Of a stretch of DNA of 64,000 bases, positions 28,406-51,499 are shown piece by piece. This DNA is from an uncultured bacterium. Lineage in GTDB: Bacteria > Zhuqueibacterota > QNDG01 > DSAB01. The stretch spans positions 87,144-151,143 of the forward strand of contig CAZYVD010000001.1 of the NCBI GenBank assembly GCA_964651045.1. Direction: 5' to 3'. The notes beneath the pieces are model-generated. The model was not told where the DNA came from and did not search any database. It saw nothing but the letters and a program-made list of their open reading frames with translations. The position numbers and the translations under genes are program-made. Position 1 is the first letter of the stretch, and each line of letters opens with the position of its first letter.

Positions 28406-28418
28406 ATTGTAAACCTCT

Positions 28419-29342
28419 TCAAGAAACTCTTAGACTTGGATATTCAAAATTAAAACGTTTTTTGTAGTACCATCTTGAAAAGAAAAAGATAAAAACGAGC
28501 AGAACCAGATAGTACGGTGCAACAACACAAATACTTAATGCTAATGCAGCTATTGACAATTTTGTACATAGCATAATTTTTGAAACTGAAGTGTCAAAAA
28601 CACTCATTATAAAAAATGGAAAGGCTATCAGTGCAGGAATAAAGAGTATCCACTCTCGCATGAAAAACGATGTTACAACCACAGCCGCCTCAAATATAAG
28701 AGCCCATAAGGCTGTACTTTTAACCCCAAATCGAACAGGAAATGTTATCTTTCCAGCCTTTTTATCTCCTTTTATATCCGGCACCGTTGTATTGAGATAA
28801 ACCGATACTCCTGCAAAAGTATATGGAAGCACCAAAAGAGGCAGTCCCTTCCCTCCTCCTGCACTCCAACCGATTAAATAGATCAACATGCCTCCTGTTC
28901 CATTGGTTATTAAGCCCATTATTGGCTTATTCTTCCACATAAAAGGGGAATAATTATAGAGTAGACCCGACAGAATGAAAAGCAGTATAAATAAAATTCC
29001 AATTATTGTACTCATCAAAAATCCCCAAACTATTGCAATCGATGCAAAGATAGCTGCCTCAAGATATGCAGACCTCTTGGAGACAATCCCATTAGCAACA
29101 AGAAATAATTTTCCATTTAACCGATCTGTCTCGACATCCTGAATCTGGTTTATAATAAATATGCTGCCCATTAAAATAGTAAGTTGAAATATTACTGCTA
29201 ACGGTATGTTTAAAAATGAATTACTGCTGTTGGAAAAATGTGTGCCTCCAAACCACCCCGCAAGAAAAAAAGTCCATATTGGATAAAATAGTATCGGCCT
29301 GGTGAGAAAAAAATAATCAAGAATTTCAATTCCTCTTTTCAA
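28419..29342 (-). CDS. UbiA-family prenyltransferase (digeranylgeranylglyceryl-phosphate synthase-like)
   Basis: 307 aa polytopic protein with UbiA Asp-rich motifs NQIQDVETD and DIKGDKKAG. Confidence 0.75.
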   Translation of the reverse strand: MKRGIEILDYFFLTRPILFYPIWTFFLAGWFGGTHFSNSSNSFLNIPLAVIFQLTILMGSIFIINQIQDVETDRLNGKLFLVANGIVSKRSAYLEAAIFASIAIVWGFLMSTIIGILFILLFILSGLLYNYSPFMWKNKPIMGLITNGTGGMLIYLIGWSAGGGKGLPLLVLPYTFAGVSVYLNTTVPDIKGDKKAGKITFPVRFGVKSTALWALIFEAAVVVTSFFMREWILFIPALIAFPFFIMSVFDTSVSKIMLCTKLSIAALALSICVVAPYYLVLLVFIFFFSRWYYKKRFNFEYPSLRVS

Positions 29343-37472: not shown

Positions 37473-38174
37473 ATGAAGAGACTTTCGATAGTACTCATTG
37501 TTTTGGCTCTTTTGAGTACAGCAGCTTTTGCAAAAGTCGGATTCCAGGGAAGACCGATTACCAATAACCTTATGATACCAACAGCAAATACTCTCAATGA
37601 AAGTGAAATATTAATAGGTATAGGACCGATCGGTTACGGAATTAGCGACAACATTCAGGTTGGTACGAATATTCTGCTCTTCCTGTTTCAGGATTACAAC
37701 TTTAACATCAAGCTCAGTCTCATCAATTCTAAAAAGTTTGTCTTTGGTGCCGGTCTGCGTGTAGATTATTTTAATCTCTCCGCACTTACGGGAGATGAGG
37801 ATAAAATGGGTTTTACATTTCTTTCGCCTTTTGCAGTCATAACCACAAGATTAAATAAAAAACTCGCATTTCATATAGGCGGTCAGTACAGCTATATTAC
37901 TGGCGAGGGTGACATCGAAGATGCCAAAGTCACCTCTTCACTCTCTGGCACAAGAATATTTGCTGGCCTGGAACACAGCATGTCATATAAAACAAAATTT
38001 CTTATTGATGGAGGATATGATATCGAATTCGAAGGTCTCTTTGTCGGAAGCGGTTTACTGATGGGATGGGAAAAATTTAGGCTGAAATTCGGAGTAACAT
38101 ATTACAATCCTAAGGGAGCAAACTCTGGTTTTGCACTCCCCAACATAGGGCTGTGGTGGAGATTCAAGGCATAA
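37473..38174 (+). CDS. outer-membrane beta-barrel protein
   Basis: 233 aa with signal peptide, alternating amphipathic beta pattern and aromatic C-terminus WWRFKA. GGAGG Shine-Dalgarno lies 8 nt upstream. Confidence 0.65.
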   Translation: MKRLSIVLIVLALLSTAAFAKVGFQGRPITNNLMIPTANTLNESEILIGIGPIGYGISDNIQVGTNILLFLFQDYNFNIKLSLINSKKFVFGAGLRVDYFNLSALTGDEDKMGFTFLSPFAVITTRLNKKLAFHIGGQYSYITGEGDIEDAKVTSSLSGTRIFAGLEHSMSYKTKFLIDGGYDIEFEGLFVGSGLLMGWEKFRLKFGVTYYNPKGANSGFALPNIGLWWRFKA

Positions 38175-38190
38175 ATAAACTATGAGTTAA

Positions 38191-38226
38191 AAATGGCCGT
38201 TATTTATTTAACGGCCATTTTTTTAA
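38191..38226 (+). terminator. rho-independent terminator
   Basis: AAATGGCCGTT / AACGGCCATTT 11-bp stem followed by a T7 run. Confidence 0.75.
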
Positions 38227-38239
38227 ACACATTTAAAAC

Positions 38240-40384
38240 TTAAACCGGATAGGGCCTCTCAGAAGGCCCTTTATATTTCGCAAGTGCAAAGTCGATACGC
38301 CTCATCTGAGGTTGTGTTGTTATCTCCTCAAAATAATGAGCCGAAAGTCCGCAGATCCTTCCAAATATAAACAGTGCCTTGGCAATCCTTGGAGAAAGAT
38401 CCATGTCTGCAATGATAGCTCCTATCACCCCATCTACATTTACCGGAAGATTAATGCCTCTTACCTGCCTTAACAATTCACTGGCCATCTTTGATATTGC
38501 CACACAATCACCAGCCACACCATTCTCCTCAGCAATCGTCCACAGTACGTCACGCCGTGGATCTTTTGTGTGAATCCTGTGTCCCATCCCTTCAATTCTT
38601 CTTCCACTTTTGATATATTCTGTCATGATCTTAATAGTTGCCTCTTTTAAAGATATCGCCTCTCTCTTTGATAAATCAACACACTCCCTGAAGAAGATTG
38701 CAGCCCTTTCCCCCGCACCTCCATGAACATCTGTAATTGCCCCAATTCCATGAGCAATTGCAACTTCATATGATGCCCTAACAGAAGCAGCAATTAGTGT
38801 GGCCTGAGCAGAAGGAGGAGTAACCCCGTGATCAATGGAAGCAACTATCATCGATTCGATCATTCTCGAATGTGACTTCTCTATTTGTCTATTCCCTAAA
38901 AAGGCTCGACATATAAGCAAGGAAAATCTATCTTTTAAACTGGATTTTTTAAATGTGGATTCATTACCGAAAATATTACCAATATATGCCGTAAACCGTC
39001 CAAGCATGAATATGGTTTTTTCAATATTTGCTTTTTCTCCCGATCTGGAAAACTCTGCTATCTCCCTATCATTAAGAATGTGTCTGACAATTGATTTTGA
39101 AATATCTTCATCTTTAATAAAATCAATAGAAGGCACGGGCCTGAGAGTAGCCTCTACAGCAACAGTGTTTAACTCTTCCAAAATATTTTTATCCGGCAGC
39201 TCTCCTCCCACAATCAAACAGGCAGCAGATATTAGATCGCCATATTCAATGATCTGCTCGATTTTATATCCACGCACAACAATACTGTTGGGCTCGATCT
39301 TTGTTATCATTGTGCCCCATGTTGGTTTTGGTGGAGGTGCCTCCCAGATCCTCCTCATTCTTTCATAATATCTTTTTGGATCAAAATATCTCTTTCCATT
39401 TAGCCTCTTTTGCACGACCTCGATAAGGTCGTACTGGCTATTTACCACAGATACACCCGCATCTTCAAGCGCCTTCTTTTTTGATATATATGTTCCCATC
39501 TCCTGCCCCGGAGCTATTATTGCACCAGCATGTCCCATTGTCTTGCCCTCTGGAGCATTTGCCCCTGAAATCAGTGCCACGATTGGTTTTGGATATTTTT
39601 CCGGGTTATTCTTAATATCCTCTGCCAGCATCTCTTCCTGGCAACCTCCAATCTCCCCTGCAATAATGACAAGATCTGTCTTATCATACTCCATTACCAG
39701 AGGTACAACATCCCTGAAGGCTGATCCTACAGCACCATCCCCACCTATACCGATAACACCATTCTGAGCAATTCCTACACTTGCCATTGCATCTGACATG
39801 TGGTACAGAATTGCACCACTTCGTGATATTATGGTAACACCACTTGAGCCGATCCTTCCTGGCTGTCTTTCTTCAGGATAAAAAATGTCAGGGAGCATCC
39901 CGATCTTTATTCTTTCTGGTGGGAATATGAGTCCTGGTGTGTTGCCTCCTATGAGAAGTGTATTATGGTTTCTTGCTGCCACAATTATGTCTCTGACATC
40001 TTTTAAAGGAATATTTTCTGTTATTAAAACTACAATTGGAATTCCCGCTTCTACAGTCTCTATTGCTGCATCTCTTGCTGTTGCATAATGACGCCATATG
40101 CTGGCCGCCACGATGTCTGGATGTTCCTTAAGAGCCTCTTCTACAGTATTGTATACAGGAATCGTCTCGTGAACGCGGCTTCCCCCTCTGCCTGGTGCAA
40201 CTCCTGCCGCAACATCCGTCCCAAACTCGTTCATCAATCCCGCATGTTTTGATCCCTGTCCACCAAGACCGACTATCAACGTTTCGAGTTTGTTTTTCTC
40301 CTTTATTTTTCTTGCAAGATCTGGGCGTATATTTTTTATTATATGATACAGCAGACCATCGTGAGCATCTATTCTGTCTTTCAT
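38240..40384 (-). CDS. aclA: ATP-citrate lyase alpha subunit (CoA-binding/ligase domain fused to citrate-synthase-like citryl-CoA lyase domain)
   Basis: 714 aa with N-terminal SucD-like CoA-binding region and C-terminal citrate synthase signature GMGHRIHTKDPR. Confidence 0.7.
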   Translation of the reverse strand: MKDRIDAHDGLLYHIIKNIRPDLARKIKEKNKLETLIVGLGGQGSKHAGLMNEFGTDVAAGVAPGRGGSRVHETIPVYNTVEEALKEHPDIVAASIWRHYATARDAAIETVEAGIPIVVLITENIPLKDVRDIIVAARNHNTLLIGGNTPGLIFPPERIKIGMLPDIFYPEERQPGRIGSSGVTIISRSGAILYHMSDAMASVGIAQNGVIGIGGDGAVGSAFRDVVPLVMEYDKTDLVIIAGEIGGCQEEMLAEDIKNNPEKYPKPIVALISGANAPEGKTMGHAGAIIAPGQEMGTYISKKKALEDAGVSVVNSQYDLIEVVQKRLNGKRYFDPKRYYERMRRIWEAPPPKPTWGTMITKIEPNSIVVRGYKIEQIIEYGDLISAACLIVGGELPDKNILEELNTVAVEATLRPVPSIDFIKDEDISKSIVRHILNDREIAEFSRSGEKANIEKTIFMLGRFTAYIGNIFGNESTFKKSSLKDRFSLLICRAFLGNRQIEKSHSRMIESMIVASIDHGVTPPSAQATLIAASVRASYEVAIAHGIGAITDVHGGAGERAAIFFRECVDLSKREAISLKEATIKIMTEYIKSGRRIEGMGHRIHTKDPRRDVLWTIAEENGVAGDCVAISKMASELLRQVRGINLPVNVDGVIGAIIADMDLSPRIAKALFIFGRICGLSAHYFEEITTQPQMRRIDFALAKYKGPSERPYPV

Positions 40385-41670
40385 CTATTCCACCCTCTCA
40401 TTTTAAATGCCTTCTCAACTCCTTCTCTAATTATCTCTGCCATTATTTTCCTGTTGCCAACCGTTATTTCCATATCTTTCAATTCTTCGGGAGTCTCTCT
40501 TTTAGATCTTTCCAAATAATCTCTCGCACTTGGCAGATCTGTTCCCACCATTCTTCCATATACTGGTACTATCCTCTTACCATTTTTATAACGATTTCTA
40601 AAACAGCTTACCAATCCACGAATGAATGTATCACACGATGATATCCCACCAAACCGAGATGTAATTATAATATCGACTATTTCATAATCCATAAGAAGAT
40701 GAAACATCTCTTCAACCCTTTTCTGTGACGGCCCTCCGCCAGAATCCATAAAATTTACTGGAATGACTCTTCCTTCAAAGAATCTGTTGCCGACATTTAC
40801 AGTTTCATCAATAGAAAATATTCCATATCCTGCACCTCCGGGCACCAAACCAACATATAGTTTATCACTATCTTTTTTATGATCTTCTGGCAGAAGATCC
40901 ACATATGGAAATCCTGCACTCCTTGCGCGAATCTCATTTCTTGTTGGTTCTGATACATCGTGTCTTATTTCCTTTATTTCTAAACTGCCTAGTAAATCTC
41001 CCTGCCTGAAAAGACCATTATCGTCCAGCACAATCTTGGCATCTGCAGCAATCGGGCCTTTGTTTGATATCATTAATGGATTTATCTCTGTCACCTTACA
41101 GTCATACTTCTGGTATATTTCGTAAATCTTTGAAATAACAAATCTTATCTCTTTAAAATATTCCCTTAATAAACCCTTGCTCTTTATTAAAAAGTTAACA
41201 AGACTATCTGCCAGCTCTTCTGGCAGAAATTTCTCATTCTCTTTTAATTCTATTTTAAATATCGACTCTGGGCTCTCCTCGGCTATTCTCTCTATTTCAA
41301 CTCCCCCTGCTGCACTTACCATTATAATATTGTTAAATGTCGATGGATTCATTGTTACACCTATATAACAAGAAGCAACTTCTTCAACAACCTCTTCAAC
41401 CAAGATCCTCTCCACTATGTATCCTTTTATATTCATTCCCAACATATCATCTAAAATCCTCACCGCCTCGTCACGATCTCTTGCTATCTTTACTCCTCCT
41501 GCCTTTCCCCTTCCTCCCACCAGTACAAGAGATTTCATTATGATTGGGAATTTTGAATCTCTAATACACTCCTCAACATCATCTCTGTTTTTAATTATTC
41601 CATACCGATCTGGAATCTTGATTCCTTCAAGCTCAAACACTCTCTTTGCTTCATCTTCATAGAGTCTCAT
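40381..41670 (-). CDS. aclB: ATP-citrate lyase beta subunit (ATP-grasp, SucC-like)
   Basis: 429 aa ATP-grasp succinyl-CoA-synthetase-beta-like protein. Overlaps the aclA start (ATGA). Confidence 0.7.
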   Translation of the reverse strand: MRLYEDEAKRVFELEGIKIPDRYGIIKNRDDVEECIRDSKFPIIMKSLVLVGGRGKAGGVKIARDRDEAVRILDDMLGMNIKGYIVERILVEEVVEEVASCYIGVTMNPSTFNNIIMVSAAGGVEIERIAEESPESIFKIELKENEKFLPEELADSLVNFLIKSKGLLREYFKEIRFVISKIYEIYQKYDCKVTEINPLMISNKGPIAADAKIVLDDNGLFRQGDLLGSLEIKEIRHDVSEPTRNEIRARSAGFPYVDLLPEDHKKDSDKLYVGLVPGGAGYGIFSIDETVNVGNRFFEGRVIPVNFMDSGGGPSQKRVEEMFHLLMDYEIVDIIITSRFGGISSCDTFIRGLVSCFRNRYKNGKRIVPVYGRMVGTDLPSARDYLERSKRETPEELKDMEITVGNRKIMAEIIREGVEKAFKMRGWNR

Positions 41671-41679
41671 GAAAACCTC

Positions 41680-42171
41680 TCAATTTAAATTTTTCTCTTT
41701 TAATTTCTTTCTTGTATATTCCAACAGTCCACCCGACTCGATTATCTTCATAACCTCTTTTGGAAATGGAGGAAATTTAAAAACTTTCTCAGCGATCTTG
41801 ATTATTCCTTTCTCAGCTACTATCTCAACAAAATCTCCTTCTTTATAACTCTCTACAGCTCTAGGACACTCTATTAAAAGCAAACCCTGATTTATCGAAG
41901 ATCTGTAAAATATTCTTGCAAAGCTCTTAGCAACTACTGCAGCAATCCCGACAGCCTTAAGACCTACTACTGGTTGTTCACGCGAACTTCCACACCCAAA
42001 ATTTTTACCTGCAATTATTATATCTCCACTTCTTACATTCAAAGCAAATTGCGGATCCAGATCTTCAAGAAGATGCGGCTTGATCTCATCTGGTGTCGAA
42101 CATGTATATGTATATTTTCCAGGAAAAAGCATGTCTGTATTTATGTCATCACCATATTTCCATACTCTCAT
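41680..42171 (-). CDS. aconitase-family small subunit (LeuD-type)
   Basis: MRVWKYGDDINTDMLFPGKY... swivel domain. Start overlaps the large-subunit stop; the ORF-track start at 42267 is inside the upstream gene. Confidence 0.75.
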   Translation of the reverse strand: MRVWKYGDDINTDMLFPGKYTYTCSTPDEIKPHLLEDLDPQFALNVRSGDIIIAGKNFGCGSSREQPVVGLKAVGIAAVVAKSFARIFYRSSINQGLLLIECPRAVESYKEGDFVEIVAEKGIIKIAEKVFKFPPFPKEVMKIIESGGLLEYTRKKLKEKNLN

Positions 42172-43436
42172 CCCCTTACCTCCTTCCTTGGATCTACTAT
42201 TTTCCCATGAATAGCCGATGCAGCAACAGTTGCCGGACTTGCCAGATAAATCTCTGCCTCTTTGCAACCCATTCTTCCCTTGAAATTTCTATTTGCCGTA
42301 CTCAGGCATCTCTCCCCAGGTGCCAAAACTCCCTGATGCGCACCAAGGCAGGGACCGCATCCAGGTGGGAGCACTGTTCCACCTGCTTCAAGAAAAATAT
42401 TGATTATCCCCTCCTTCACTGCCTTCATTAGGATCGAACGAGATGCCGGCAGAATAAGCAGCCTTGATCCTCCTGCCACTCTCTTACCTTTTAATATTTT
42501 TGCCGCCTCTCTTAAATCGCTCAATCGGCCATTTGTACATGTGCCTATCAAAAATTGATCGATATCCACTCCCTCAACCTCTTCTACATTCTTTACATTA
42601 TCCACCTTATGAGGTAATGCAACTACTGGCTCTATCTTGTTCATCTGGTAATCCAGCTCCTTCAAATATTCGGCATCTTTATCGGGTATTATTTCCCTGT
42701 ACATTTCTTTATATATTCCACATCCCATTAAAAATTCTCTTGTCACCCCATCTACAGGAAAAATTGCAGCCTTTGCCCCCATCTCAACACCCATGTTTGC
42801 AATTGTGAACCTCTGATCCATTGAGAGGCTTTCAATATCTCCATGAAATTCAACCACGCAGTAGTTTGCACCATCAGAACCAATATCACCTATTATTTGT
42901 AATATAAGATCTTTTGCCGACACTCCAGGCTTTAGACTGCCTGTAAGATTTATTTTTATTGTTTGTGCAACCTTAAGCCATGTCTGACCCGATAATAGCA
43001 GTGCTGCAGCCTCTGTTCGATCAATCCCTGTAGCGAGAGCACCAACTGCCCCATATGAGCATGTATGTGAATCACTGCCCAACACTATTGTCCCAGGCAA
43101 TGCTAATCCCTTTTCATACACAATTTGATGACAAATTCCTTCTCCTATGTCATAAAAGTTTTTTATTCCAAACCTTCCTACAAACTCTCTTATCTTCTTG
43201 TGACCTGCAGCATTTTTCTCGCTTGCTGCAGGAATTACATGATCCAGGACGATCACTGGAAGTTCAGGGTCAACCACACCATACCTATTAAGCTCACCAT
43301 CGATCTTCTGTATTATTGCCGATGTATTATCGTGAGTCAGGAGGTGGTCTGGTTTTATAGTAACTATCTCTCCAACTTCTACAGTATCTTTTCCAGATTT
43401 GGTTGCAATTATCTTTTGGATAAATGTCATTCCCAT
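42168..43436 (-). CDS. aconitase-family large subunit (LeuC-type)
   Basis: 422 aa with Fe-S ligand cysteines (GTCTNGR, PGCGPCLG). Confidence 0.8.
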   Translation of the reverse strand: MGMTFIQKIIATKSGKDTVEVGEIVTIKPDHLLTHDNTSAIIQKIDGELNRYGVVDPELPVIVLDHVIPAASEKNAAGHKKIREFVGRFGIKNFYDIGEGICHQIVYEKGLALPGTIVLGSDSHTCSYGAVGALATGIDRTEAAALLLSGQTWLKVAQTIKINLTGSLKPGVSAKDLILQIIGDIGSDGANYCVVEFHGDIESLSMDQRFTIANMGVEMGAKAAIFPVDGVTREFLMGCGIYKEMYREIIPDKDAEYLKELDYQMNKIEPVVALPHKVDNVKNVEEVEGVDIDQFLIGTCTNGRLSDLREAAKILKGKRVAGGSRLLILPASRSILMKAVKEGIINIFLEAGGTVLPPGCGPCLGAHQGVLAPGERCLSTANRNFKGRMGCKEAEIYLASPATVAASAIHGKIVDPRKEVRG

Positions 43437-43509
43437 AATTCTGCTCCAGAGTTATCGATGATTTTTGTCTCTAAATATAATAAAAATATGTTAATTTCAA
43501 AATACGATT

Positions 43510-43562
43510 TTTTTTGAATTTTAACCTAAAATTAAGGCCCGCTCTCTAACTCAAGCGGGCCT
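43510..43562 (-). terminator. rho-independent terminator after the fused aconitase-family gene
   Basis: GGCCCGCT / AGCGGGCC stem followed by a T-rich tract on the minus strand. Confidence 0.55.
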
Positions 43563-43584
43563 TTAATCGATCTTTTCTTGATAT

Positions 43585-45393
43585 CTACAGCAATCCTCCC
43601 CTTTGATATAGCTCCATCTGAATCTCGAAGAATGGTTCACACTCTACAACCTCACCAGTCTCGATCCTCTCTATTATTCCTTTTTTTAGATCAATCTTTA
43701 TTTTCTCACCATCCTTTATATCTCTTTCTATCAAATCACTTACTACGATTGGAAAACCTGAATTAATAGCATTACGCTCATATATTGCTCCAAACGATTT
43801 TGCCACAATTGCCTGTATCCCAAGACCGATAAAACAATCAACAGCCTGCTGTCGAGAGGACCCTGCTCCAAAGTTTTTTCCTGTTACAATAATATCACCT
43901 TTCTTTGCCTTTTCTGGAAAGTCCTCCCATCCTTCTATGTTATTCAATGCATATCTCGCCATCTCTTTTGCATCTGTTATTGTCAAATATCTATTATGAA
44001 ATATCATGTCTGTATCGATATTATCTATTCTTATGACCCAGATCCTGCCTATTAATTCTATGGGCCTTCTGGGTCTTCTTACATTTATGCTCTCATGTCT
44101 CCTTGGCCTTCTCTTTATCTTTTTATCAACAACAAATATAACTGGTTTTTTTAAAATTTTATCTTCCGATACTATCACTCCGCTAATTGCCGAAGCTGCT
44201 ACTGTTGCAGGAGAGGCTAAATATACATCTCCCTTACCCTGCTTTCCTACAAAATTTCTGTTTCCTGTGCTTATTGTAACCTCGCCGGGTCCATTCTGCC
44301 CAATCTGACCTGCTGCACATCCTGCACAACCGGGATTTCCGACTAAAGCCCCTGCCTTTATGAATGTCTCTATTATGCCCTCATCAAGGCACCTCTTCCA
44401 TATCTCTCTTGTTGATGGAACTATCTTAAGTACTACACCTGGTGCAACTCTTTTACCTTTTAATATTTTTGCTGCTGTCTTCATGTCTTCAAATCTTCCA
44501 TTTGTACAAGATCCAATAAACGCAGAATCGATTTTAATTCCTTCTACTTTCTCAACATCTACTACATCCTCAGGATGGCCTGGCCTGGATATCAATGGAC
44601 GAATTTTGGAAATATCGATCTCAACCTCTCTTTCATACTCTGCATCCATATCCGGTAATATTTTCTCTATCTTGTCTCTCGATATTATATTGAAATGAGA
44701 TAGAATATTCTTATTCGGACGGAAGAGTATTATTATTCCACCCATCTCTGTTGCCATCGATGCAATGGTGATTCTTTCATCCAGTGTCATATCCTCTGTC
44801 CATTCACCATAAATCTCTGCTGCATAACCCAGCAGTCCAGATGCTCCAAAATTTTTAAGTAAATTCAATACAACATCCTTAGCATAAATCTTCTCAGATG
44901 GTCTACCCTTCAGGATTATTTTTATTGTTTTTGGAACTTTAAACCATATCTTTCCAAATGCCCATGCAGCCGCAATGTCTCTATCACCCATTCCCTGTCC
45001 AAATGCACCAACAGCCCCTAGGATATTGGCATGCGAATCTGTTGAAATCAATGTCCCACCAGGTTTTATTATTCCTTCATCTATCGCAATGTGAGTTCCA
45101 ATTCCTGAATTAATGTCATAGACTTTGATTCCTCTTTCCCTTGCAAACCTGCGGCATATTTGTTGATTGGTTGTATATTTTTGATCAGAGCCAGTTGGAT
45201 TGCAGTCGAATGTAAAATATGTTTTCGAAGGATCATCTATGAATAAGTCATTATCTAATATATTTTTTACTACATTTGCTCCGCCAAAATCCCTTGCAAT
45301 CCTGACATCGATTCCAACTTCTACTATTTCGCCTGCCTTTACTGTTCTCTGGCAATGAGCCGAGATTATTTTCTCTATCATCGTTCGATTCAT
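43585..45393 (-). CDS. fused aconitase-family protein (large+small domains in one polypeptide)
   Basis: 602 aa with LeuC-like N-terminus (cysteine ligands GSCTNGR, PGCAGCAAG) and LeuD-like C-terminus. Confidence 0.75.
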   Translation of the reverse strand: MNRTMIEKIISAHCQRTVKAGEIVEVGIDVRIARDFGGANVVKNILDNDLFIDDPSKTYFTFDCNPTGSDQKYTTNQQICRRFARERGIKVYDINSGIGTHIAIDEGIIKPGGTLISTDSHANILGAVGAFGQGMGDRDIAAAWAFGKIWFKVPKTIKIILKGRPSEKIYAKDVVLNLLKNFGASGLLGYAAEIYGEWTEDMTLDERITIASMATEMGGIIILFRPNKNILSHFNIISRDKIEKILPDMDAEYEREVEIDISKIRPLISRPGHPEDVVDVEKVEGIKIDSAFIGSCTNGRFEDMKTAAKILKGKRVAPGVVLKIVPSTREIWKRCLDEGIIETFIKAGALVGNPGCAGCAAGQIGQNGPGEVTISTGNRNFVGKQGKGDVYLASPATVAASAISGVIVSEDKILKKPVIFVVDKKIKRRPRRHESINVRRPRRPIELIGRIWVIRIDNIDTDMIFHNRYLTITDAKEMARYALNNIEGWEDFPEKAKKGDIIVTGKNFGAGSSRQQAVDCFIGLGIQAIVAKSFGAIYERNAINSGFPIVVSDLIERDIKDGEKIKIDLKKGIIERIETGEVVECEPFFEIQMELYQRGGLL

Positions 45394-45410
45394 TTTCTAT
45401 CCCTTATCAT

Positions 45411-45986
45411 CTATTCTATTAACAGTCCTTTCTCCTTCAATACTAAAGGGTTAAACGTGGCAAAATCTGCCTGGTGTATGAAAATCGTCTCTACTACTTG
45501 TGGCCTTCCCTCGCCCTCCTTTGAATGGCATGCAATTATGTTTATTACCTCTTCTGGCACTCCGCATTCCGCTGCCAGTATCGCTCCTGATATTGGATGC
45601 CTGGTTAATTTTCCCGCTCTGCTCTTTCTATATCCTCCCTTTCCATCACTTTCTATCTCGATCAGTTTTCCAACATCATGAAGCAGCCCCCCTGCATATA
45701 GATAATCGATATTTATTTCATAAACCATTTTACTGTATGACCTTATCTGAGCCTTTGCCATTTCGACAGCCATCTCCGTTACTGCAATAGTATGTTCTAT
45801 TAGATTGATCCCACGAGACTCTGTAAGTAAAGAAAATGGAATCTTCTTCAATTCATCTACCTTCTTCCAATTTCCCCTCCTGCATCCCTCCACCCACACC
45901 TCCACAACCTTTTTTCTCAATTCTTTATTTTTAATATTTTCTAACTGTCTTTTAAACAAATCTGAAATCATCTTACTATCTATCAT
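45411..45986 (-). CDS. HDIG-domain phosphohydrolase
   Basis: 191 aa with HD motif (LLHDVGK). Confidence 0.7.
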   Translation of the reverse strand: MIDSKMISDLFKRQLENIKNKELRKKVVEVWVEGCRRGNWKKVDELKKIPFSLLTESRGINLIEHTIAVTEMAVEMAKAQIRSYSKMVYEINIDYLYAGGLLHDVGKLIEIESDGKGGYRKSRAGKLTRHPISGAILAAECGVPEEVINIIACHSKEGEGRPQVVETIFIHQADFATFNPLVLKEKGLLIE

Positions 45987-46002
45987 ATATACCCCCTCTA
46001 TT

Positions 46003-46034
46003 CTGTTATTAAAAATGCCGAGCTAACCCGGCAT
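46003..46034 (-). terminator. rho-independent terminator after the lipoprotein gene
   Basis: AAATGCCG / CGGCATTT stem followed by a T5 run on the minus strand. Confidence 0.6.
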
Positions 46035-46069
46035 TTAATTTAATATGTTTCTATATTTCATATTCTTTA

Positions 46070-46594
46070 CTATTTTTCTTCAATTTTTACGTTGTATTTT
46101 TGTATTCCAGTATCATACTCAAGTTTTATCCTGCTTCTTATCTTCTCAAAGTATTTATATGCTTGATCTGTCATTGGCATTGTTACCCACTCTTCGCTAC
46201 CCTGCACCTGTACCTGACTTTCGCCTGTCATCCTTACAACCCACTCTGTTGCACCTGGTGCCATATATTGGGTTCTCGGCAGTGCCCTGATTATTATCCT
46301 TGTCCTTGCGCTCACTATGCCCATTCGTCTTTCATCCTCGAATGGACTTCTGTACAGATAGTTTGTTTCTATATATATCTCATTCTCTGTCTGTTCTCTT
46401 CTTATTATATTATATTGATATCTATTCTGCAGCAGTTTTAATGTTTTTTCATAAAAATCTATTGCGGTTACATTCCCAATCCTTTTTGAATATCTGCTTG
46501 GATTACTCCTTTCTCCTTTTGTTCTAGTGGATGAACAGCCCCAGCTAAAAATCAAGAATGTCGCTAATATACAAATAAATAATCTCCTCATCAT
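46070..46594 (-). CDS. lipoprotein
   Basis: 174 aa with signal peptide plus lipobox FSWGCSS; lies downstream of SusD. Confidence 0.6.
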   Translation of the reverse strand: MMRRLFICILATFLIFSWGCSSTRTKGERSNPSRYSKRIGNVTAIDFYEKTLKLLQNRYQYNIIRREQTENEIYIETNYLYRSPFEDERRMGIVSARTRIIIRALPRTQYMAPGATEWVVRMTGESQVQVQGSEEWVTMPMTDQAYKYFEKIRSRIKLEYDTGIQKYNVKIEEK

Positions 46595-46617
46595 TTTCCT
46601 ATCCCCTATTCTAAAAT

Positions 46618-46666
46618 TTAATTATAAAAGGTAGGCCACCCCTTATTAGAGATGACCTACCTTTTT
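46618..46666 (-). terminator. rho-independent terminator after the SusD-like gene
   Basis: AAAAGGTAGG / CCTACCTTTT 10-bp stem with T-runs on both sides. Confidence 0.6.
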
Positions 46667-46693
46667 AATTCAAACTACAATTGCATGGATCTG

Positions 46694-48289
46694 TTACTGC
46701 CTGGGCGGAAGCACTGTCCTTCGAATATTAAACTTGGGAGCAGCATATTCTCCACTTCCTCCAAATGTGTAGTTATCCATCATAAGAAGTTCTAGCTCTG
46801 CCCCAGGAATTGGAAACTGCAGAGGTGTGCCTTTTGGCAACTCCTGCCATCCTCTTCTATCAGTTAAGGGTATCCCAAATGCTTCAGCCACAGTCTCCAT
46901 TCCCTTCTCATACTTCAGCATTGCCCACAGGCTTCCATTCCATTTCCTCTCATCAGTAACAGCTCCAACATTTGCAGTTGTTGCTGCAGGAAGTTCACCA
47001 ATCGTTGTTCTGGTCTTGTTGATCAGATCCGCAGCTGCCTGGGCATTACCGAGTCTCAGTTCAGCCTCTGCCTTGAGTAAATCCAGCTCTCTCGTACTTA
47101 GTAATGTCACCCATCCAGTACCAGTATCATGAACGTTTAAAGTCTTTTTACAGTTATATCGACTGAAGTGATAAGTACCTCTCGATATTCTAAAAAAAAC
47201 ATCTGGAGTATAGTAGAAATACTTACCATCTGCATGAGGATCACCAGCAGGATGGACCCTTCTGTCGTAAGACAGTACATCAAAAACATTTCTTTGCTGT
47301 ACATCCGTTGCTAACCATGCATCATATGCACCCGAGGTATCCGCAGGACCGATCAACCTATAGTCAACCTTCATCCATGATTGATCTGCTATCATCCACT
47401 GAAGTCCCCAACTAACCCACCATATTTGCCAGTCATTATATACACCAAAATCATCCTGAATACCTTTTTCAGCATTCGTCTTTACTGAGCTCCAATCAAC
47501 AGCATCGCGCTCTGTCTTGTTGCGTGCAACTGCTGCTGTGAAACGTGCAATATAAGAGTAGCAGAGCCTTTTCAGCCTGTCCTGATCGATCACAGCATGG
47601 CCACCGCCGCTCTGTGGAGCCCAATCATCAGGAATAGTAAATGTATTTGCAGAGCAGATGTTAATACAATCATTCAGCTTCTTAATGGCAAAATCTAATA
47701 CCTCTTTATACCCAGAAGCTGGAATGTCGCCTTCAAGATCTGTGTCCTCATCCACAAGAAATGCCTTGTCAATAAGCAGACTGAGCCATCCATAGGCAAT
47801 ACCCTGCATGAATTTTGCCCACGCCTTGTTTCTATTAGTATTGTAAACCGTATCGCCTGTAGAAGATACTTCATAGAATTTCATTCCATCTTTGATCGAT
47901 ATCAGCATATCGTTAGCAGAAGATATGGCTCCATACATGTCATCCCAGAAATACTTCAAAGCATATGCATAAACGTATGATGGATCGTTGTTCCATGCTA
48001 CTCTCGGTTCAGATGACATGTCACGCATTCCTGAGTTGCCCCACGAGCTTGAACCATAGTCAGCCATTGTTGTAAGCATCATTCCGGCACCATCATAAGT
48101 GGTCAATGCATAATAAAAAGACTTGAATGAGCTCACCAGAAGTTTTTCAACATCACCGGGATTTCTCAGTGCACGCGCTCTGTCAGGAGCATTCAGATTC
48201 TTAATTGCCAAATCGATATGACATCCTGATATCAGCACAACAATTAAAATGAGGGCGGCGCAGCTCGTAAATAATTTTGATAATTTCAT
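46694..48289 (-). CDS. SusD/RagB-family nutrient-binding outer-membrane lipoprotein
   Basis: 531 aa with lipobox LISGC and SusD-like TPR-rich fold; sits immediately downstream of SusC. Confidence 0.8.
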   Translation of the reverse strand: MKLSKLFTSCAALILIVVLISGCHIDLAIKNLNAPDRARALRNPGDVEKLLVSSFKSFYYALTTYDGAGMMLTTMADYGSSSWGNSGMRDMSSEPRVAWNNDPSYVYAYALKYFWDDMYGAISSANDMLISIKDGMKFYEVSSTGDTVYNTNRNKAWAKFMQGIAYGWLSLLIDKAFLVDEDTDLEGDIPASGYKEVLDFAIKKLNDCINICSANTFTIPDDWAPQSGGGHAVIDQDRLKRLCYSYIARFTAAVARNKTERDAVDWSSVKTNAEKGIQDDFGVYNDWQIWWVSWGLQWMIADQSWMKVDYRLIGPADTSGAYDAWLATDVQQRNVFDVLSYDRRVHPAGDPHADGKYFYYTPDVFFRISRGTYHFSRYNCKKTLNVHDTGTGWVTLLSTRELDLLKAEAELRLGNAQAAADLINKTRTTIGELPAATTANVGAVTDERKWNGSLWAMLKYEKGMETVAEAFGIPLTDRRGWQELPKGTPLQFPIPGAELELLMMDNYTFGGSGEYAAPKFNIRRTVLPPRQ

Positions 48290-48304
48290 GTTTCCTCCTA
48301 AAGA

Positions 48305-51300
48305 TTATAGTTCGATTTCGACTACACCGGTGATTTGTCTGAAGTGCGGATATACATAGTTATCGACTCTCTGCTCTACATTTCCGACTTCAGGATCGAA
48401 CCCAGAGTATTTTGTTAATGTTATGAGGTTTCTTCCTCTTACACCAAATGTAATCGCATGGAATATATTGCCAAATATTCCACCGGCAAAGCCGGAAAGT
48501 GCCTTCTTGTCGAACCTGTAATTGATGGAAAGTTCTCTGAGCTTTACATATGTTCCATTCTCTACAAATTCGCTGTTGACATCATTTGTATCGTAGAGTA
48601 TATCATAATAGGCCATGGGTTTTTTCTCGTAATACTTTTTCCCTCTCTGATCATGTGTTTCCCAGCGATACTCACGATATGTCCACTGTCTTGTCTCGTT
48701 ATAGATGTCTCCGCCTATCTGAGAATCTATTACCATATAGATAGAAAGCCCTTTCCACCTGAAGTTAGATGTCAGCCCTACAGTAAAATCAGGAATTACA
48801 TTACCGATTACTACAAAATCGCTTCCTTCATCATCTACATACTTGATCGGCATTCCCCAGTCAAGCTCGATGTCGTTTCCGTCAGCATCCTTGCCAACAA
48901 CAACATCTGTACCCCAGTACTTGATCGTTCCATCTGAATTCAATCCATCTTTCCATGTATTTCCTTCACCGACAGGTACCAAATAACCATCATCGTTTTT
49001 GTCGAATGCATCTTTGTTGTAGTTTTCTGGAAGTTCACTATATTTGGTTATCCATCTGTGACCATACATTCTTCCATGAACCTCTCCCTCTTTGAAGTAG
49101 AATGCATCTAATGCTCCACCTCTCCATGGAGGACGATCCAGCTTTGTGATCTCCTCACGAATTCTTGAGAAGTTTGCACCGATCGACCAGCTCATGTCTC
49201 TTTTCTGAATCACGAATGCCTGAAGCTCGGCTTCAATTGTTGATGACTTGAGATCACCGGCATTGGCTACCTCATTCGAGTATCCCATATATCCTGCAAG
49301 TGGTACTGTCAGGATCTGATCCTTTGTATCCTTTGTTGAATAGGTAATCTCAAAGGAGAAACGATCGAGAAATGCCATCTCTACACCAACCTCTAATTCC
49401 CTTGCAAATGCAGGTTTCAGCTTGGAGTTTCCGAGCCTTCCCTTTGAGATTGCTCCGCCTCCGACATTAAAGGTCTCATACTGATCGTAAAAACCGGGCC
49501 TCGATCCTGCTGTTCCATAAGAAGCCCTCAGCTTGAACTCATTGATCTTGTCTGTAAACCAGAACGGCTCTTCACTCACGCGCCATGCCACACTTCCACG
49601 ATAGTAGAGATGATACCTTTCATCTTCACCAAACAGCGAGCTTCCATCATAGCGAAGCAGCAAGCTTCCAATATACTTCTCTTTATAATCGAGGTGTGTG
49701 GATGCATAGTATCCGATAGCCCTTACTTCTGTCTGCGTGGAATTAACATACCTCATATCAGGATTAACATTGGAAAGGTCTTCTACACCTGCAACAATAA
49801 GGCTGTCGCCACCTGCATAAGTATATTGATACTGTGACTCTTCATAGTGAATATGTAGGTCGGTCTTTGTCGAAAGATCTTTGAAGCTCTTAAGAAAAGA
49901 AACTGTAAAATCACCATTCAAACCTTCTGTAAAAGAATGGTTCCTATAATATCCACCAAAATTTGTTGGGTCACTAAGCATGGTTTTATAGCCTATCTTA
50001 TAGTAGGTCCAATTAAATGTGCTGGATCTATCATAGCCAAAACTTATTTCAGCATTGAACCAGTTGGTAGGAGAATAGAGCAGGTTAAAATTACCCATTA
50101 ACCTTCTTCTATAGTCACGGTCTTTTAAATACTTAGCAGGATAAAGCGGATTCTCCTGATTTGATCTCGGATCCGGTGCTATCAGGAGTTCTCCATTCTC
50201 ATCTTCTGCCTCAAGGTTTGTATAAGGTGCCATGAAGAAAAAGTCATATAAAGGACCACTATCTCCAAATGGACTGTGCCTCCATGATGTCATGAAGTAT
50301 GCACCAACATTGAGGCTCAAATCGTCCCTCAATTTGTTGTCGATATTAATTCTTACATTCTGCCTGCCGTAACCCTTTAGGTATTTCATAATACCTGGCT
50401 CTTTTAAGTTGCTGATACTCAATCTGAAGTTTGAACCAGGCATGTTTCTCGAAAGAGTCACAGTATTTCTGAAATACTGTCCAGGACGATAGAACTGCTT
50501 AAGGTGATCATAAGTCTTTATAGAGGAAGGATACTTTTTATCGATAAATGTCCTCTCTACCGGCAATCCTTCACCGCTCGGATCGAGATCATCAAGAGCA
50601 AGATTAGGATCCTCTATTCCGCATGAGTCACCATTTGTATTTACAAAGTAGGTTCCTGTTGGATCGACCTTGTATTGATGACTCTCGTTTCTGTATGGCT
50701 TGAAATGCGGCAATTCAAAACCATACTCGTTCCTTAAAATGATTCTTGTCTGCCCCTGGGCCAGAAAACTTCCTCTCTTTGTCTTGATGTTTATCACACC
50801 AGTAGCAGCACGCGAACCATAGAGAGCTGCTGCTGCAGGTCCCTTGACAAGCTCCATGCTCTCAACGTCAAGACCATCGATATCGACCTGCGATGCATTC
50901 AGGATGACTCCATCTACTATGACGAGTGGGCTGTTTCCCGTACCGATATTTGTAGATCCTCTAAGCCTTATGTCGAGTCCACTTCCTGGCCGGCCGCTTC
51001 CTTTTACTACTGATACACCAGCAACCTTACCCTGAAGGTTCTCTATCGGGTTCTCTTTGGGATCCATCTGGATATCCTCTTCCGCTACCCTCTTTACAGT
51101 AAACGGAAGAAGTTTCTTCGGAGTACTCTTTGTCACACCTGTCACAACAACAGCATCCATTTCAAGAACATCCTGTTTAAGCGAAAAGTCTTTTGTAATC
51201 GTACCAGGTGAAAGTACAATCTTCTCCTTCCCAGTATGATATCCAATAAATTCGGCTGTCAGTTCAACCTCCTGTCCGCTCATAAAACGTGCAGGAACTA

Positions 51301-51499
51301 TGAACCGATAGACACCATTCTCGTCAGACGATGCTCCGAGTTTATATTCTTTGATAGTCACATTCGTTCCAGGCAATGGATTGCCCTCTTCGTCTGTAAC
51401 CTTACCAGAAATAATTAGTCCTCTCTGTTGAGCAGAAGCAAGTATTGGAATCAAAATCAGTACAAGGGACAAAAGAGCAATTAAAATTCTCTTCATCAC
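48305..51499 (-). CDS. SusC/RagA-family TonB-dependent outer-membrane transporter
   Basis: 1064 aa with signal peptide, carboxypeptidase-regulatory-like N-domain, TonB plug and 22-strand barrel; C-terminal aromatic residue. Confidence 0.85.
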   Translation of the reverse strand: MMKRILIALLSLVLILIPILASAQQRGLIISGKVTDEEGNPLPGTNVTIKEYKLGASSDENGVYRFIVPARFMSGQEVELTAEFIGYHTGKEKIVLSPGTITKDFSLKQDVLEMDAVVVTGVTKSTPKKLLPFTVKRVAEEDIQMDPKENPIENLQGKVAGVSVVKGSGRPGSGLDIRLRGSTNIGTGNSPLVIVDGVILNASQVDIDGLDVESMELVKGPAAAALYGSRAATGVINIKTKRGSFLAQGQTRIILRNEYGFELPHFKPYRNESHQYKVDPTGTYFVNTNGDSCGIEDPNLALDDLDPSGEGLPVERTFIDKKYPSSIKTYDHLKQFYRPGQYFRNTVTLSRNMPGSNFRLSISNLKEPGIMKYLKGYGRQNVRINIDNKLRDDLSLNVGAYFMTSWRHSPFGDSGPLYDFFFMAPYTNLEAEDENGELLIAPDPRSNQENPLYPAKYLKDRDYRRRLMGNFNLLYSPTNWFNAEISFGYDRSSTFNWTYYKIGYKTMLSDPTNFGGYYRNHSFTEGLNGDFTVSFLKSFKDLSTKTDLHIHYEESQYQYTYAGGDSLIVAGVEDLSNVNPDMRYVNSTQTEVRAIGYYASTHLDYKEKYIGSLLLRYDGSSLFGEDERYHLYYRGSVAWRVSEEPFWFTDKINEFKLRASYGTAGSRPGFYDQYETFNVGGGAISKGRLGNSKLKPAFARELEVGVEMAFLDRFSFEITYSTKDTKDQILTVPLAGYMGYSNEVANAGDLKSSTIEAELQAFVIQKRDMSWSIGANFSRIREEITKLDRPPWRGGALDAFYFKEGEVHGRMYGHRWITKYSELPENYNKDAFDKNDDGYLVPVGEGNTWKDGLNSDGTIKYWGTDVVVGKDADGNDIELDWGMPIKYVDDEGSDFVVIGNVIPDFTVGLTSNFRWKGLSIYMVIDSQIGGDIYNETRQWTYREYRWETHDQRGKKYYEKKPMAYYDILYDTNDVNSEFVENGTYVKLRELSINYRFDKKALSGFAGGIFGNIFHAITFGVRGRNLITLTKYSGFDPEVGNVEQRVDNYVYPHFRQITGVVEIEL

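Follow-up and report, generated by a model that had tools for sequence, protein, structure and literature searches.

This locus raises the question of which reaction is catalysed by the products of two adjacent genes that combine succinyl-CoA synthetase (SCS)-like and citrate synthase (CS)-like parts, next to two sets of aconitase-family genes. The original prediction named the pair aclB-aclA, i.e., an ATP-citrate lyase (ACL), and placed it in a citrate/isocitrate module.

Organisation of the gene cluster

The five open reading frames of that prediction are all present on the minus strand of the window, i.e., the whole 64-kb stretch of DNA analysed, and since their Pfam E-values range from 1e-10 to 1e-102, they do not represent chance reading frames. 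In the order of transcription, they encode AcnF, a fused aconitase-family protein of 602 aa (43585..45393; Pfam Aconitase and Aconitase_C), a LeuC/HacA-type large subunit of 422 aa (42168..43436; aconitase large-subunit type in Pfam, NF001614), a LeuD/HacB-type small subunit of 163 aa (41680..42171; Pfam Aconitase_C, TIGR02087), a beta subunit of 429 aa with a SucC-like ATP-grasp domain and a CoA-ligase domain (40381..41670; Pfam ATP-grasp_2), and an alpha subunit of 714 aa (38240..40384; Pfam CoA_binding, Ligase_CoA and Citrate_synt). The LeuD-like frame probably starts later than the TTG listed for it at 42267; in the JGI gene call, as in homologs, the first residues are MRVWKYGDD. The LeuC-like and LeuD-like genes overlap by 4 nt, 9 nt separate the LeuD-like gene from the beta gene, and the beta and alpha genes overlap by 4 nt, a spacing that supports co-transcription.

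Two features were absent from the original prediction. An HD-domain (HDIG) protein of 191 aa is encoded 17 nt upstream of the AcnF gene, likewise on the minus strand (45411..45986; Pfam HD, 5.8e-13, and NCBIfam HDIG), and belongs with the five frames as a sixth gene. The 148-nt gap between the AcnF and LeuC-like genes holds a strong terminator-like hairpin (43534..43563, minus strand; a pattern match only), with an 11-bp stem containing 7 GC pairs followed by an AT-rich spacer. The window also encodes a SusC-like receptor, a sulfatase and a hybrid two-component regulator, from which heterotrophy and affiliation with the FCB group (Fibrobacterota-Chlorobiota-Bacteroidota) are plausible. A reductive TCA cycle, originally suggested as one of two options, is not demonstrated by the 64 kb, which contain neither 2-oxoglutarate:ferredoxin oxidoreductase nor fumarate reductase, nor any other TCA genes.

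The alpha and beta subunits and their closest relatives

In the alpha subunit, a SucD-like CoA-binding and phosphohistidine domain is fused to a lyase domain of citrate-synthase length. The GHAGA motif with the phosphohistidine, His285 (residues 284-288; 39521..39535, minus strand), aligns with the SucD phosphohistidine loop, and the citrate-synthase signature GMGHRIHTKDPR with His602 and Arg610 (residues 599-610; 38555..38590, minus strand) aligns with GHR..DPR of citryl-CoA lyase (CCL) and archaeal citrate synthases. Both motifs are invariant across 53 homologs, and all catalytic and oxaloacetate-binding positions of the CS/CCL family are kept (the His of DH, HGGA, GHR..DPR, NVD, FGR, and MRR). 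The AF2 model of alpha (pLDDT 85) has Chlorobium ACL alpha (6hxj_B) as its top whole-chain Foldseek match, and also matches Methanothrix and human ACL. PGAP names the protein "citrate/2-methylcitrate synthase".

The two-subunit domain architecture of ACL is supported, but the aclB-aclA label is not. The N-terminal part of alpha scores 212 bits with SucD vs 116 with both CcsB and AclA, and among PDB sequences beta scores 160 bits with SucC, 70 with CcsA, and 55 with AclB. The lyase part reaches 113-116 bits with Hydrogenobacter CCL vs 46-48 with the Chlorobium ACL lyase module. By these bit scores, the synthetase parts are far nearer to SCS than to citryl-CoA synthetase (CCS) or ACL, and the lyase part is nearer to CCL than to ACL, which points in part to the grouping with SCS or CCS/CCL that would speak against the original label. 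Beta matches Pfam ATP-grasp_2 with 141 bits, the ACL ATP-grasp profile PF24948 with 43.6 (gathering cut-off 83), and NCBIfam sucCoAbeta with 230 (cut-off 375.6); both subunits are below the NCBIfam SCS cut-offs, and alpha is below those of all CCL models (top score 200.6 vs 245). The substrate loop of beta, GGISSCD, is nearer to GGIVRCD of SucC than to GGSIANFT of human ACLY, and the citrate-binding Arg379 of ACLY is replaced by Met in the alignment. GGISSCD, GRMVGTD and several insertions are specific to the family.

Compared with type I ACL (Chlorobium AclB/AclA, Methanothrix ACL, and human ACLY; PDB codes 6hxj, 6hxi, and 6hxh), the gene pair has the same layout, with an ATP-grasp subunit first and then a subunit in which a CoA-binding/phosphohistidine part is joined to a citryl-CoA lyase module, and it retains the phosphohistidine motif as well as the lyase's catalytic His and Asp. 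However, identity is just 19-22%, the lyase domain exceeds that of type I ACL by about 105 residues, alpha carries a 33-residue N-terminal extension, and a conserved HD-domain partner gene is present. Hydrogenobacter thermophilus CCS and CCL (PDB codes 6hxq and 6hxp) would share the two-step chemistry, and CCL is the best solved relative of the lyase domain, but the counterparts of CcsB and CCL are fused here, and CCL lacks the N-terminal CS-like segment. SucCD is the top match of beta and of the N-terminal half of alpha (39-45% identity, TM 0.90), with identical Pfam domains in the synthetase parts; the pair differs from SucCD by the altered substrate loop, the insertions, and the lyase fusion.

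The alpha family is compact, with members of about 714 aa that are more than 58% identical and occur in bacteria and archaea. By its sequences it belongs apart from type I ACL as a biochemically uncharacterised family, and it is probably the fused ccsB-ccl form noted in Planctomycetes DG20 (Thiel et al. 2017, PMC5459899). Together with the postulated "type II ACL" of Magnetococcus (Mmc1_3638/3639) and tubeworm symbionts (Hugler & Sievert 2011), that form resembles our pair by description, a SucC/CcsA-like small subunit and a CcsB-CCL fusion, and by identical source annotations ("succinyl-CoA synthetase alpha/beta" and "citrate synthase"); both are putative and uncharacterised. None of 120 family members contains the peptides specified by the tubeworm primers for type II ACL, and the literature examined on type II ACL and ccsB-ccl describes neither HD nor aconitase-family partners. 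Split relatives also exist (P0129, L029, and stand-alone CS-like proteins), and in these the SucD-like and CS-like genes stay adjacent.

Conserved neighbours and the aconitase-family proteins

Gene neighbourhoods were compared at 23 related loci that span phyla and include both bacteria and archaea, many of them from uncultured anaerobes, and they agree with the originally proposed citrate/isocitrate module. Beta and alpha are adjacent in all 21 loci that include the region upstream of alpha. The HD gene, the first of the cluster, is their most regular partner, adjacent in 21 of the 22 loci whose flanks are long enough; its product is 62-69% identical among bacterial and archaeal MAGs, and the AF2 model (pLDDT 90.8) matches generic HD folds only. 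AcnF adjoins beta/alpha in 13 other loci, and the LeuCD-like pair does so in 5 of the 23, with LeuC-like orthologs of 65-70% identity placed likewise in L004, L012, and L025; all five genes recur as a cluster in a Planctomycetota MAG, at 52-65% identity. An Iso_dh-like gene lies upstream in L004, L012, L022, and L025, a divergently transcribed GTP-PEPCK gene is found in L008 and L009, and a PrpD/MmgE-family dehydratase gene is adjacent in L018, L020, L021, and L023. L003 has a citF-like citrate CoA-transferase and a stand-alone CS-like lyase directly downstream. In L012, bona fide sucCD directly follow the beta/alpha genes, which implies that the pair is not the SCS of the cell.

The suggestion that these aconitase-family genes differ from ordinary leuCD is borne out: they fall short of the LeuC/LeuD and HacA/HacB equivalog cut-offs and have specificity loops of their own. 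The LeuC-like protein passes NF001614 (548.6 bits, cut-off 385) but fails the LEU2 (470 vs 610) and HacA_Meth (469 vs 550) equivalogs, and the LeuD-like protein passes TIGR02087 (183.9, cut-off 109) but fails the leud equivalog (171.6 vs 245.9). AcnF, with large and small domains in one chain, passes NCBIfam at the subfamily level only (NF001614, 422 bits, cut-off 385) and scores 306 with the aconitate hydratase model PRK07229 (cut-off 612). As in the archaeal-type LeuCD/HacAB of the same subfamily (M. jannaschii isopropylmalate isomerase, 4kp1/3vba, and homoaconitase, 4kp2/2pkp), the proteins retain the cysteines that ligate the Fe-S cluster and the catalytic Ser-Arg; in AcnF these include the three Cys ligands, DSH, and GSSR. 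The AcnF active site is a variant in which the Asp-His motif is Asp-Cys (FDCNP) without exception and His-Asp is Arg-Asp. Loss of the His from the otherwise conserved Asp-His motif leaves it doubtful whether AcnF is an active aconitase. None of the characterised enzymes compared has the small-subunit specificity loops seen here. The LeuD-like loop NTDMLFPGKYTYT, kept in orthologs, is unlike that of the M. jannaschii isomerase (ARYLV-YT) and homoaconitase (GPYLRTT); the core is YTYT in the split pair and (Y/H)L(T/A/S)(I/V) in the fused proteins (YLTI in the window), vs YLV-Y and YLRT in the known enzymes.

Proposed citrate cleavage and alternative readings

From the domain content, the catalytic residues, the distinctness of the family and its conserved neighbourhoods, we assign a probability of roughly 0.6 to beta and alpha being a two-subunit ACL-like enzyme of its own lineage, in a citrate/isocitrate operon with HD and aconitase-family proteins. 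The cluster is most likely a reversible module for ATP-dependent citrate cleavage and isomerisation. In an assembly that we infer between the subunits, the beta ATP-grasp domain would bind ATP, His285 of alpha would be phosphorylated, and citrate, the presumed substrate, would be activated and converted to the CoA thioester, citryl-CoA, which the fused CS-like domain would cleave to acetyl-CoA and oxaloacetate. Such an enzyme would derive from synthetase subunits of the SCS type and a CS/CCL-like lyase of full length, and would not be a type I ACL. The partner hydro-lyases (AcnF and, in some genomes, the LeuCD-like pair with an isocitrate dehydrogenase-like protein) would convert citrate, cis-aconitate, and isocitrate into one another and so connect 2-oxoglutarate/isocitrate with acetyl-CoA and oxaloacetate. 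Taken as a whole, the reaction of beta and alpha would be near equilibrium and could run in either direction, with cleavage slightly favoured as the physiological one. The delta-G'm of ACL is about -8 kJ/mol for cleavage (PMC13147460, Table 1), and the similarly annotated fused genes of DG20 were read as a citrate-cleaving enzyme (PMC5459899). Counted against the ACL-like reading are synthetase parts that resemble SCS more than they do any enzyme proven to activate citrate, the Met at Arg379 and the SucC-like substrate loop, the AcnF active site and unmatched specificity loops, the window without other TCA genes, and an HD protein without an explained role.

The same chemistry could, as a tentative alternative, serve as a citrate synthase that conserves ATP (acetyl-CoA + oxaloacetate + ADP + Pi -> citrate + CoA + ATP) and supplies an oxidative branch in fermentative heterotrophs, with aconitase and isocitrate dehydrogenase leading to 2-oxoglutarate. 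The lyase domain aligns with residues 27-370 of a 377-aa archaeal CS, the aconitase-like and Iso_dh-like neighbours recall CS-Acn-IDH operons, the host resembles a polysaccharide-degrading heterotroph, and ACL operates in the synthetic direction in Desulfobacter postgatei. However, oxaloacetate pools are usually low, synthesis would cost about +8 kJ/mol with 1 mM reactants (PMC13147460), and the PEPCK, citF, and acetyl-CoA/acetate enzyme neighbours suit cleavage at least equally. It is unlikely that the compound activated and cleaved by the enzyme is instead an analogue of citrate, such as 2-methylcitrate, homocitrate, or an acid of the citramalate type, which the divergent aconitase-like and Iso_dh-like proteins would then process. 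Such a substrate would fit with all components being below the equivalog cut-offs of their canonical families, the novel loops and AcnF active site, the PrpD-family neighbours, and the PGAP name, but all CS-family positions for binding the oxaloacetate moiety are conserved, a citF-like gene adjoins the stand-alone lyase homolog in L003, and no neighbourhood examined has a methylisocitrate lyase or LeuA/NifV-type synthase.

We consider it very improbable that alpha joins an SCS paralog to a true citrate synthase, as two independent TCA activities in one polypeptide without channelling of citryl-CoA. SCS is the top sequence and structure match of the synthetase parts, and the C-terminal domain has the length and catalytic triad of CS, but the missed SCS cut-offs, the altered succinate-site motif with family-specific insertions, the genuine sucCD in L012, the retained adjacency in split relatives, and the whole-chain fold match to ACL all argue otherwise. 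Least probable is a leucine-pathway isomerase that lies beside the citrate genes by chance. The top PDB matches of the LeuC/LeuD-like pair are the M. jannaschii isopropylmalate/citramalate isomerase subunits, but the LEU2 and leud cut-offs are missed, the loop is YTYT rather than YLVY, neither leuA nor leuB is present in the 64-kb window, the pair is translationally coupled to beta/alpha, and the gene order is also kept in Planctomycetota and other MAGs.

Layout of the gene cluster

The five minus-strand open reading frames claimed at 38240–45393 by the original prediction are all present as listed. They encode a fused 602-residue aconitase-family protein (AcnF, 43585–45393; Pfam Aconitase and Aconitase_C), a LeuC/LeuD-like pair of 422 residues (42168–43436; Aconitase) and 163 residues (Aconitase_C), the latter with its true start MRVWKYGDD at 42171, the 429-residue ATP-grasp protein beta (40381–41670; ATP-grasp_2), and the 714-residue fusion protein alpha (38240–40384; CoA_binding, Ligase_CoA, and Citrate_synt). 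The start at 42171 is that of the JGI gene call on contig Ga0190360_1000223, which is identical to the window, as is a 197-kb NCBI contig. The cluster genes are close-set, overlapping by 4 nt or standing 9 or 17 nt apart. Two elements had been missed: a gene for an HD-domain protein (45986–45411, minus strand), located 17 nt upstream of the AcnF gene, and a strong terminator-like hairpin 3′ of the AcnF gene (43534–43563, minus strand), GC-rich, 11 bp long, and with a T-rich tail. The hairpin lies inside the 148-nt spacer between the AcnF and LeuC-like genes, is followed by a 100-nt AT-rich spacer, and may serve as a terminator or attenuator that separates HD–AcnF from LeuCD–beta–alpha. Terminator-like sites are enriched, with 12 compared with 4.9 in shuffled sequences, and one of them is convincing. 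A sigma-70 promoter scan gave no excess (26 sites versus 25.4 in shuffles), and an Rfam search of 37900–46800 returned no RNA element above chance.

Relation of the beta/alpha pair to known enzymes

Our main interpretation, to which we assign a probability of about 0.6, is that beta and alpha form a putative reversible, ATP-dependent citrate-cleaving enzyme of a distinct lineage derived from succinyl-CoA synthetase (SCS), accompanied by dedicated citrate/isocitrate hydro-lyases. According to Pfam, alpha joins the CoA-binding, phosphohistidine, and citryl-CoA lyase modules in a single chain, as in the large subunit of type I ATP-citrate lyase (ACL). The AlphaFold model of alpha (pLDDT 85) has Chlorobium ACL alpha (6hxj_B, 723 columns) as its best whole-chain Foldseek match, followed by Methanothrix ACL and human ACLY. 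The catalytic phosphohistidine and the lyase His/Asp of type I ACL are shared by alpha (His285 in GHAGA, His602 in GHR, and Asp651 in NVD), and all three are invariant in 53 sequences. In Chlorobium AclA, the catalytic residues of the lyase are H491 and D543 (PMC13147460).

Despite this layout, the label aclB-aclA, i.e., type I ACL, is not supported, as the subunits are nearer to SCS. The N-terminal half of alpha is 39–45% identical to SucD and scores 212 bits, compared with 115.6 bits for CcsB, the corresponding subunit of citryl-CoA synthetase (CCS), and about 116 bits for AclA, the AclA value being a sum over both domains. For beta, the scores are 160 bits for SucC, 70.5 bits for CcsA, and 55 bits for AclB, and with values so far under those for SucC and SucD, the synthetase subunits do not group with CcsA/CcsB. 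Furthermore, beta reaches 43.6 bits against the ACL ATP-grasp profile PF24948, where the gathering score is 83, but 141 bits against the SucC-type profile ATP-grasp_2. The PF24948 cut-off together with the relative similarity (SucD/SucC above AclA/AclB) thus rules out a canonical type I ACL. A plain SCS would account for the nearest relatives of the synthetase modules, but both subunits fall below the NCBIfam cut-offs for SCS, beta with 229.9 versus 375.6 (sucCoAbeta) and 228.5 versus 370 (PRK00696), and alpha with 223.1 versus 353.2 (sucCoAalpha) and 225.5 versus 336 (PRK05678). In addition, a related locus, L012, carries canonical sucC (386 residues) and sucD (290 residues) genes immediately downstream of alpha; with the cut-offs, this argues against a plain SCS as well. 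All six NCBIfam citryl-CoA lyase models also score alpha below cut-off, the best being NF004866 (200.6 versus 245). With the two-subunit layout of ACL and no ACL ATP-grasp, SCS, or CCL profile passed, the pair is ACL-like in design and lies outside all curated families.

The lyase domain of alpha aligns with residues 27–370 of a 377-residue archaeal citrate synthase, and includes about 105 residues (roughly 400–505 in alpha, confident helices in the model) that are absent from the 268-residue citryl-CoA lyase (CCL) and from the ACL lyase module. Its nearest solved relative is the Hydrogenobacter citryl-CoA lyase (6hxp_A, 116.5 bits); the next hit is a citrate synthase at 55.9 bits, and the ACL lyase module scores 48. 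The His of DH, HGGA, GHR..DPR, NVD, FGR, and MRR, which we take to be catalytic or oxaloacetate-binding positions of citrate synthase, all occur in alpha and do not vary across 53 homologs; the same is true of the phosphohistidine motif GHAGA.

The acid-binding site of beta was compared with that of human ACLY by aligning ACLY residues 1–424 (100% identical to 3mwd_A) with the beta family and genuine SucC. The citrate-binding residues of ACLY domain 5 are presumably Asn346, Thr348, and Arg379, a list that reportedly comes from Sun et al. 2010. Beta fails to match these residues: the position of Arg379 is occupied by an invariant Met in the beta family (GRMVGTD) and by Leu in SucC, and the Gly-rich substrate loop reads GGISSCD in the beta family, GGIVRCD in SucC, and GGSIANFT in ACLY. 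There are also three insertions in the beta family relative to SucC. As judged from this alignment, the acid-binding site of beta is SCS-like with changes of its own. Since the ACLY-type citrate site is not matched, citrate as the substrate is deduced from the lyase domain and the gene context, and not from the synthetase site.

Conserved neighbours and distribution of the family

Six proteins from the window were mapped by tblastn onto 23 other loci with a family member; the metagenome scan yielded mainly ordinary SucD loci, and its family members are L013–L029 only. Beta and alpha are adjacent in 21 of 21 loci that cover the region upstream of alpha (L023 begins within alpha). The most constant neighbour of the pair is the HD protein, which adjoins it in every locus with sufficient flank except L003 (21 of 22), a count from which L019 was left out as it begins too far in. 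AcnF is adjacent in 13 loci, with a split form in L022, and the LeuC/LeuD-like pair is found in L004, L012, L022, and L025. In all four loci with both aconitase sets, an Iso_dh-like gene that stays below all NCBIfam cut-offs is located upstream of the HD gene. The fullest cluster, at 3146–14538 in L012, comprises Iso_dh-like, HD, AcnF, LeuC-like, LeuD-like, beta, alpha, sucC, and sucD genes, and a multihaem cytochrome gene is situated close to it.

Other neighbours are GTP-dependent PEPCK in L008 and L009, and a PrpD/MmgE-family dehydratase that adjoins the module in L018 (4225–5568), L020, L021, and L023. In L003 (12130–14881), from a MAG labelled Thermoplasmata, a citF-like citrate CoA-transferase (499 bits against a cut-off of 501) comes directly after beta and alpha, and beside it is a stand-alone 353-residue citrate synthase-like lyase; together, the transferase and this lyase would provide an ATP-independent route for citryl-CoA cleavage. 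The sucCD, GTP-PEPCK, citF-like, and PrpD/MmgE neighbours point to tricarboxylate (citrate) metabolism, and the neighbouring genes, including the genuine sucCD in L012, argue that the beta/alpha pair is not the SCS of the cell. L003 also has, close by, a Pta-like gene as well as acetyl-CoA synthetase genes of both the AMP- and the ADP-forming type. The PrpD/MmgE-family protein is divergent, scoring about 100 bits with models for 2-methylcitrate dehydratase, well short of their cut-offs, and the loci that carry it lack AcnF, L020 alone having a LeuCD-like pair, itself divergent.

The original prediction saw more aconitase-family dehydratases here than leucine synthesis would require, and in HMM classification neither gene set passes an equivalog model for LeuC/LeuD, HacA/HacB, or aconitate hydratase. 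Both AcnF and the LeuC/LeuD-like pair pass subfamily-level models only (NF001614, TIGR01343, and TIGR02087). The pair falls below the LeuCD equivalogs (TIGR02083 LEU2, 470.2 versus 610.7; TIGR02084 leud, 171.6 versus 245.9) and below the homoaconitase models (HacA_Meth, 468.6 versus 550; HacB, 157 versus 230). AcnF is likewise below the aconitate hydratase models (PRK07229, 305.7 versus 612; TIGR01342, 273 versus 719), and the AcnA and AcnB models give less than 130 bits. The split small subunit has the specificity loop NTDMLFPGKYTYT, which is kept in orthologs, with GKYTYT at the loop, and the AcnF loop reads DTDMIFHN(R/K)(Y/H)L(T/A/S)(I/V)T. Both differ from Methanocaldococcus jannaschii isopropylmalate isomerase, which has ARYLV-YT at the loop, and neither small domain has the loop Arg of the M. 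jannaschii homoaconitase (GPYLRTT). A plain leuCD is excluded by the NCBIfam cut-offs and these loops.

The three Fe-S cysteine ligands, DSH, and the catalytic Ser-Arg of GSSR are retained in AcnF as well as in the LeuC/LeuD-like pair. However, AcnF and all its orthologs have Asp-Cys (FDCNP) in place of the Asp-His of isopropylmalate isomerase and homoaconitase, a position where aconitase likewise has Asp-His (Asp100-His101). Arg-Asp for His-Asp and GIGTH for G(V/I)CHQ are further changes in AcnF and its orthologs, in the segments at residues about 60–66 and 98–102, and AcnF also has GKQG for GRxG. Because of the failed equivalogs and the distinct loops and active site, AcnF and the LeuC/LeuD-like pair are regarded as dedicated subfamilies and not ordinary leuCD, with putative substrates. 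Two aconitase-family enzymes that divide labour have a precedent in homocitrate isomerisation, and by analogy, we hypothesize that AcnF and the LeuC/LeuD-like pair could do the same.

The HD protein is 62–69% identical across bacteria and archaea, i.e., conserved as much as the enzyme, and its homologs occur on the same contigs as alpha matches. It carries the usual H..HD..H..H..D residues, and its model (pLDDT 90.8) retrieves generic HD matches only, e.g., YhaM and YfbR, with no sequence relative found in the PDB.

More than 600 database proteins match alpha, and the best 120 all have 705–723 residues and 62–71% identity; the full-length family has a single representative in the library clustered at 50% identity. 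The next relatives are stand-alone citrate synthase-like proteins (357–370 residues, 47–48% identity), one stand-alone SucD-like protein (69%), and three remoter SucD–lyase fusions (33–38%). Among the source names are Krumholzibacteriota and Planctomycetota in the case of alpha, and Aminicenantes, Latescibacteria, and Thermoplasmatota in that of the HD partner. Several loci represent archaeal neighbourhoods, with NucS and AcnX/UbiD-type mevalonate genes, and the family is plentiful in sediment and subsurface MAGs from several phyla and from Thermoplasmatota-type archaea. Thiel et al. 2017 described genes with the annotations SCS alpha, SCS beta, and citrate synthase, which are separate in a thermophilic Planctomycete but joined in Planctomycetes DG20; they read these as encoding a citrate-cleaving enzyme and placed it between CCS/CCL and a postulated type II ACL (PMC5459899). 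The window pair shares the layout of the type II ACL/DG20 fused ccsB-ccl, i.e., a SucC/CcsA-like small subunit and a CcsB–CCL fusion (PMC5459899), and a Planctomycetota MAG locus (L004) holds an orthologous cluster. The window family fits that description, the likeness being one of description and architecture only. The tubeworm type II ACL primer (PMC3522073) peptides VAKEEWF and NGFEAIA are absent from 120 family members with two mismatches allowed, which is a weak test.

Reaction direction and genomic setting

The direction of the proposed reaction can be argued both ways. Cleavage has a slight edge from thermodynamic considerations (PMC13147460) and from the contexts with PEPCK and citF, whereas a heterotrophic host and an operon layout resembling citrate synthase–aconitase–isocitrate dehydrogenase favour citrate synthesis with ATP conservation. 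As for the citrate/isocitrate module of the original prediction, the genes are confirmed, and the interpretation stands in part: the ACL-like layout and citrate-type neighbours support it, but the type I ACL label is not supported, and nothing in the window supports reductive TCA autotrophy. A broader and rather unlikely interpretation is that HD, beta, and alpha with its citrate synthase portion constitute an uncharacterised three-component citrate-cleaving or -forming system, with the HD protein as a new subunit that would serve regulation or proofreading. ACL-type chemistry would then have arisen independently from SCS, with a full-length citrate synthase fold, and the system would have spread horizontally among anaerobic heterotrophs, both bacterial and archaeal, and recruited its own LeuCD-type ‘aconitases’ (one with Asp-Cys) and an isocitrate dehydrogenase-like enzyme.

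The ACL and CCS/CCL genes are standard genomic markers of the reductive TCA cycle. If the three-component interpretation is true, marker surveys that use Chlorobium ACL or Hydrogenobacter CCS/CCL references would consistently overlook or mislabel the system. If the family cleaves or makes citrate with ATP, carbon-flow reconstructions of the host organisms would change, and a defined operon of three to six genes would be available for expression. It would also offer an intermediate form for the proposed evolutionary series from citryl-CoA lyase over ACL to citrate synthase, because its lyase module is citrate synthase-sized. Biochemical work has good targets in the family, the HD partner, and the Asp-Cys aconitase-like protein, the latter two as concrete unexplained leads.

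Other reductive TCA genes are absent from the rest of the 64-kb window, where the remaining genes relate to housekeeping, envelope, and polysaccharide use. Polysaccharide-utilisation-type genes at 46694–51499 and 57884–62604 (minus strand) include a SusC-like TonB-dependent receptor (CarboxypepD_reg and Plug), whose 531-residue partner matches no family, as well as a sulfatase carrying an F5/8 type C domain and a hybrid two-component regulator (Reg_prop/Y_Y_Y/HTH_18). Such genes would fit a heterotroph from the FCB group (Fibrobacterota-Chlorobiota-Bacteroidota). In a search with PurH, the best match other than the window itself has 75% identity, and relatives bearing a name are listed from 72%. 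At 26497–29342 (minus strand), the gene for a CDP-alcohol phosphatidyltransferase forms a cluster with those for a geranylgeranyl reductase family protein and a UbiA prenyltransferase. The reductase has archaeal digeranylgeranylglycerophospholipid reductase as its best equivalog, below cut-off, and the prenyltransferase is weakly similar to DGGGP synthases. A bacterial gene cluster for isoprenoids or ether lipids is a possibility here. Nearly all genes in the window are on the minus strand, 31 of 32 2-kb bins have a negative GC skew, and the cumulative skew falls steadily, and the window therefore appears to lie inside one replichore.
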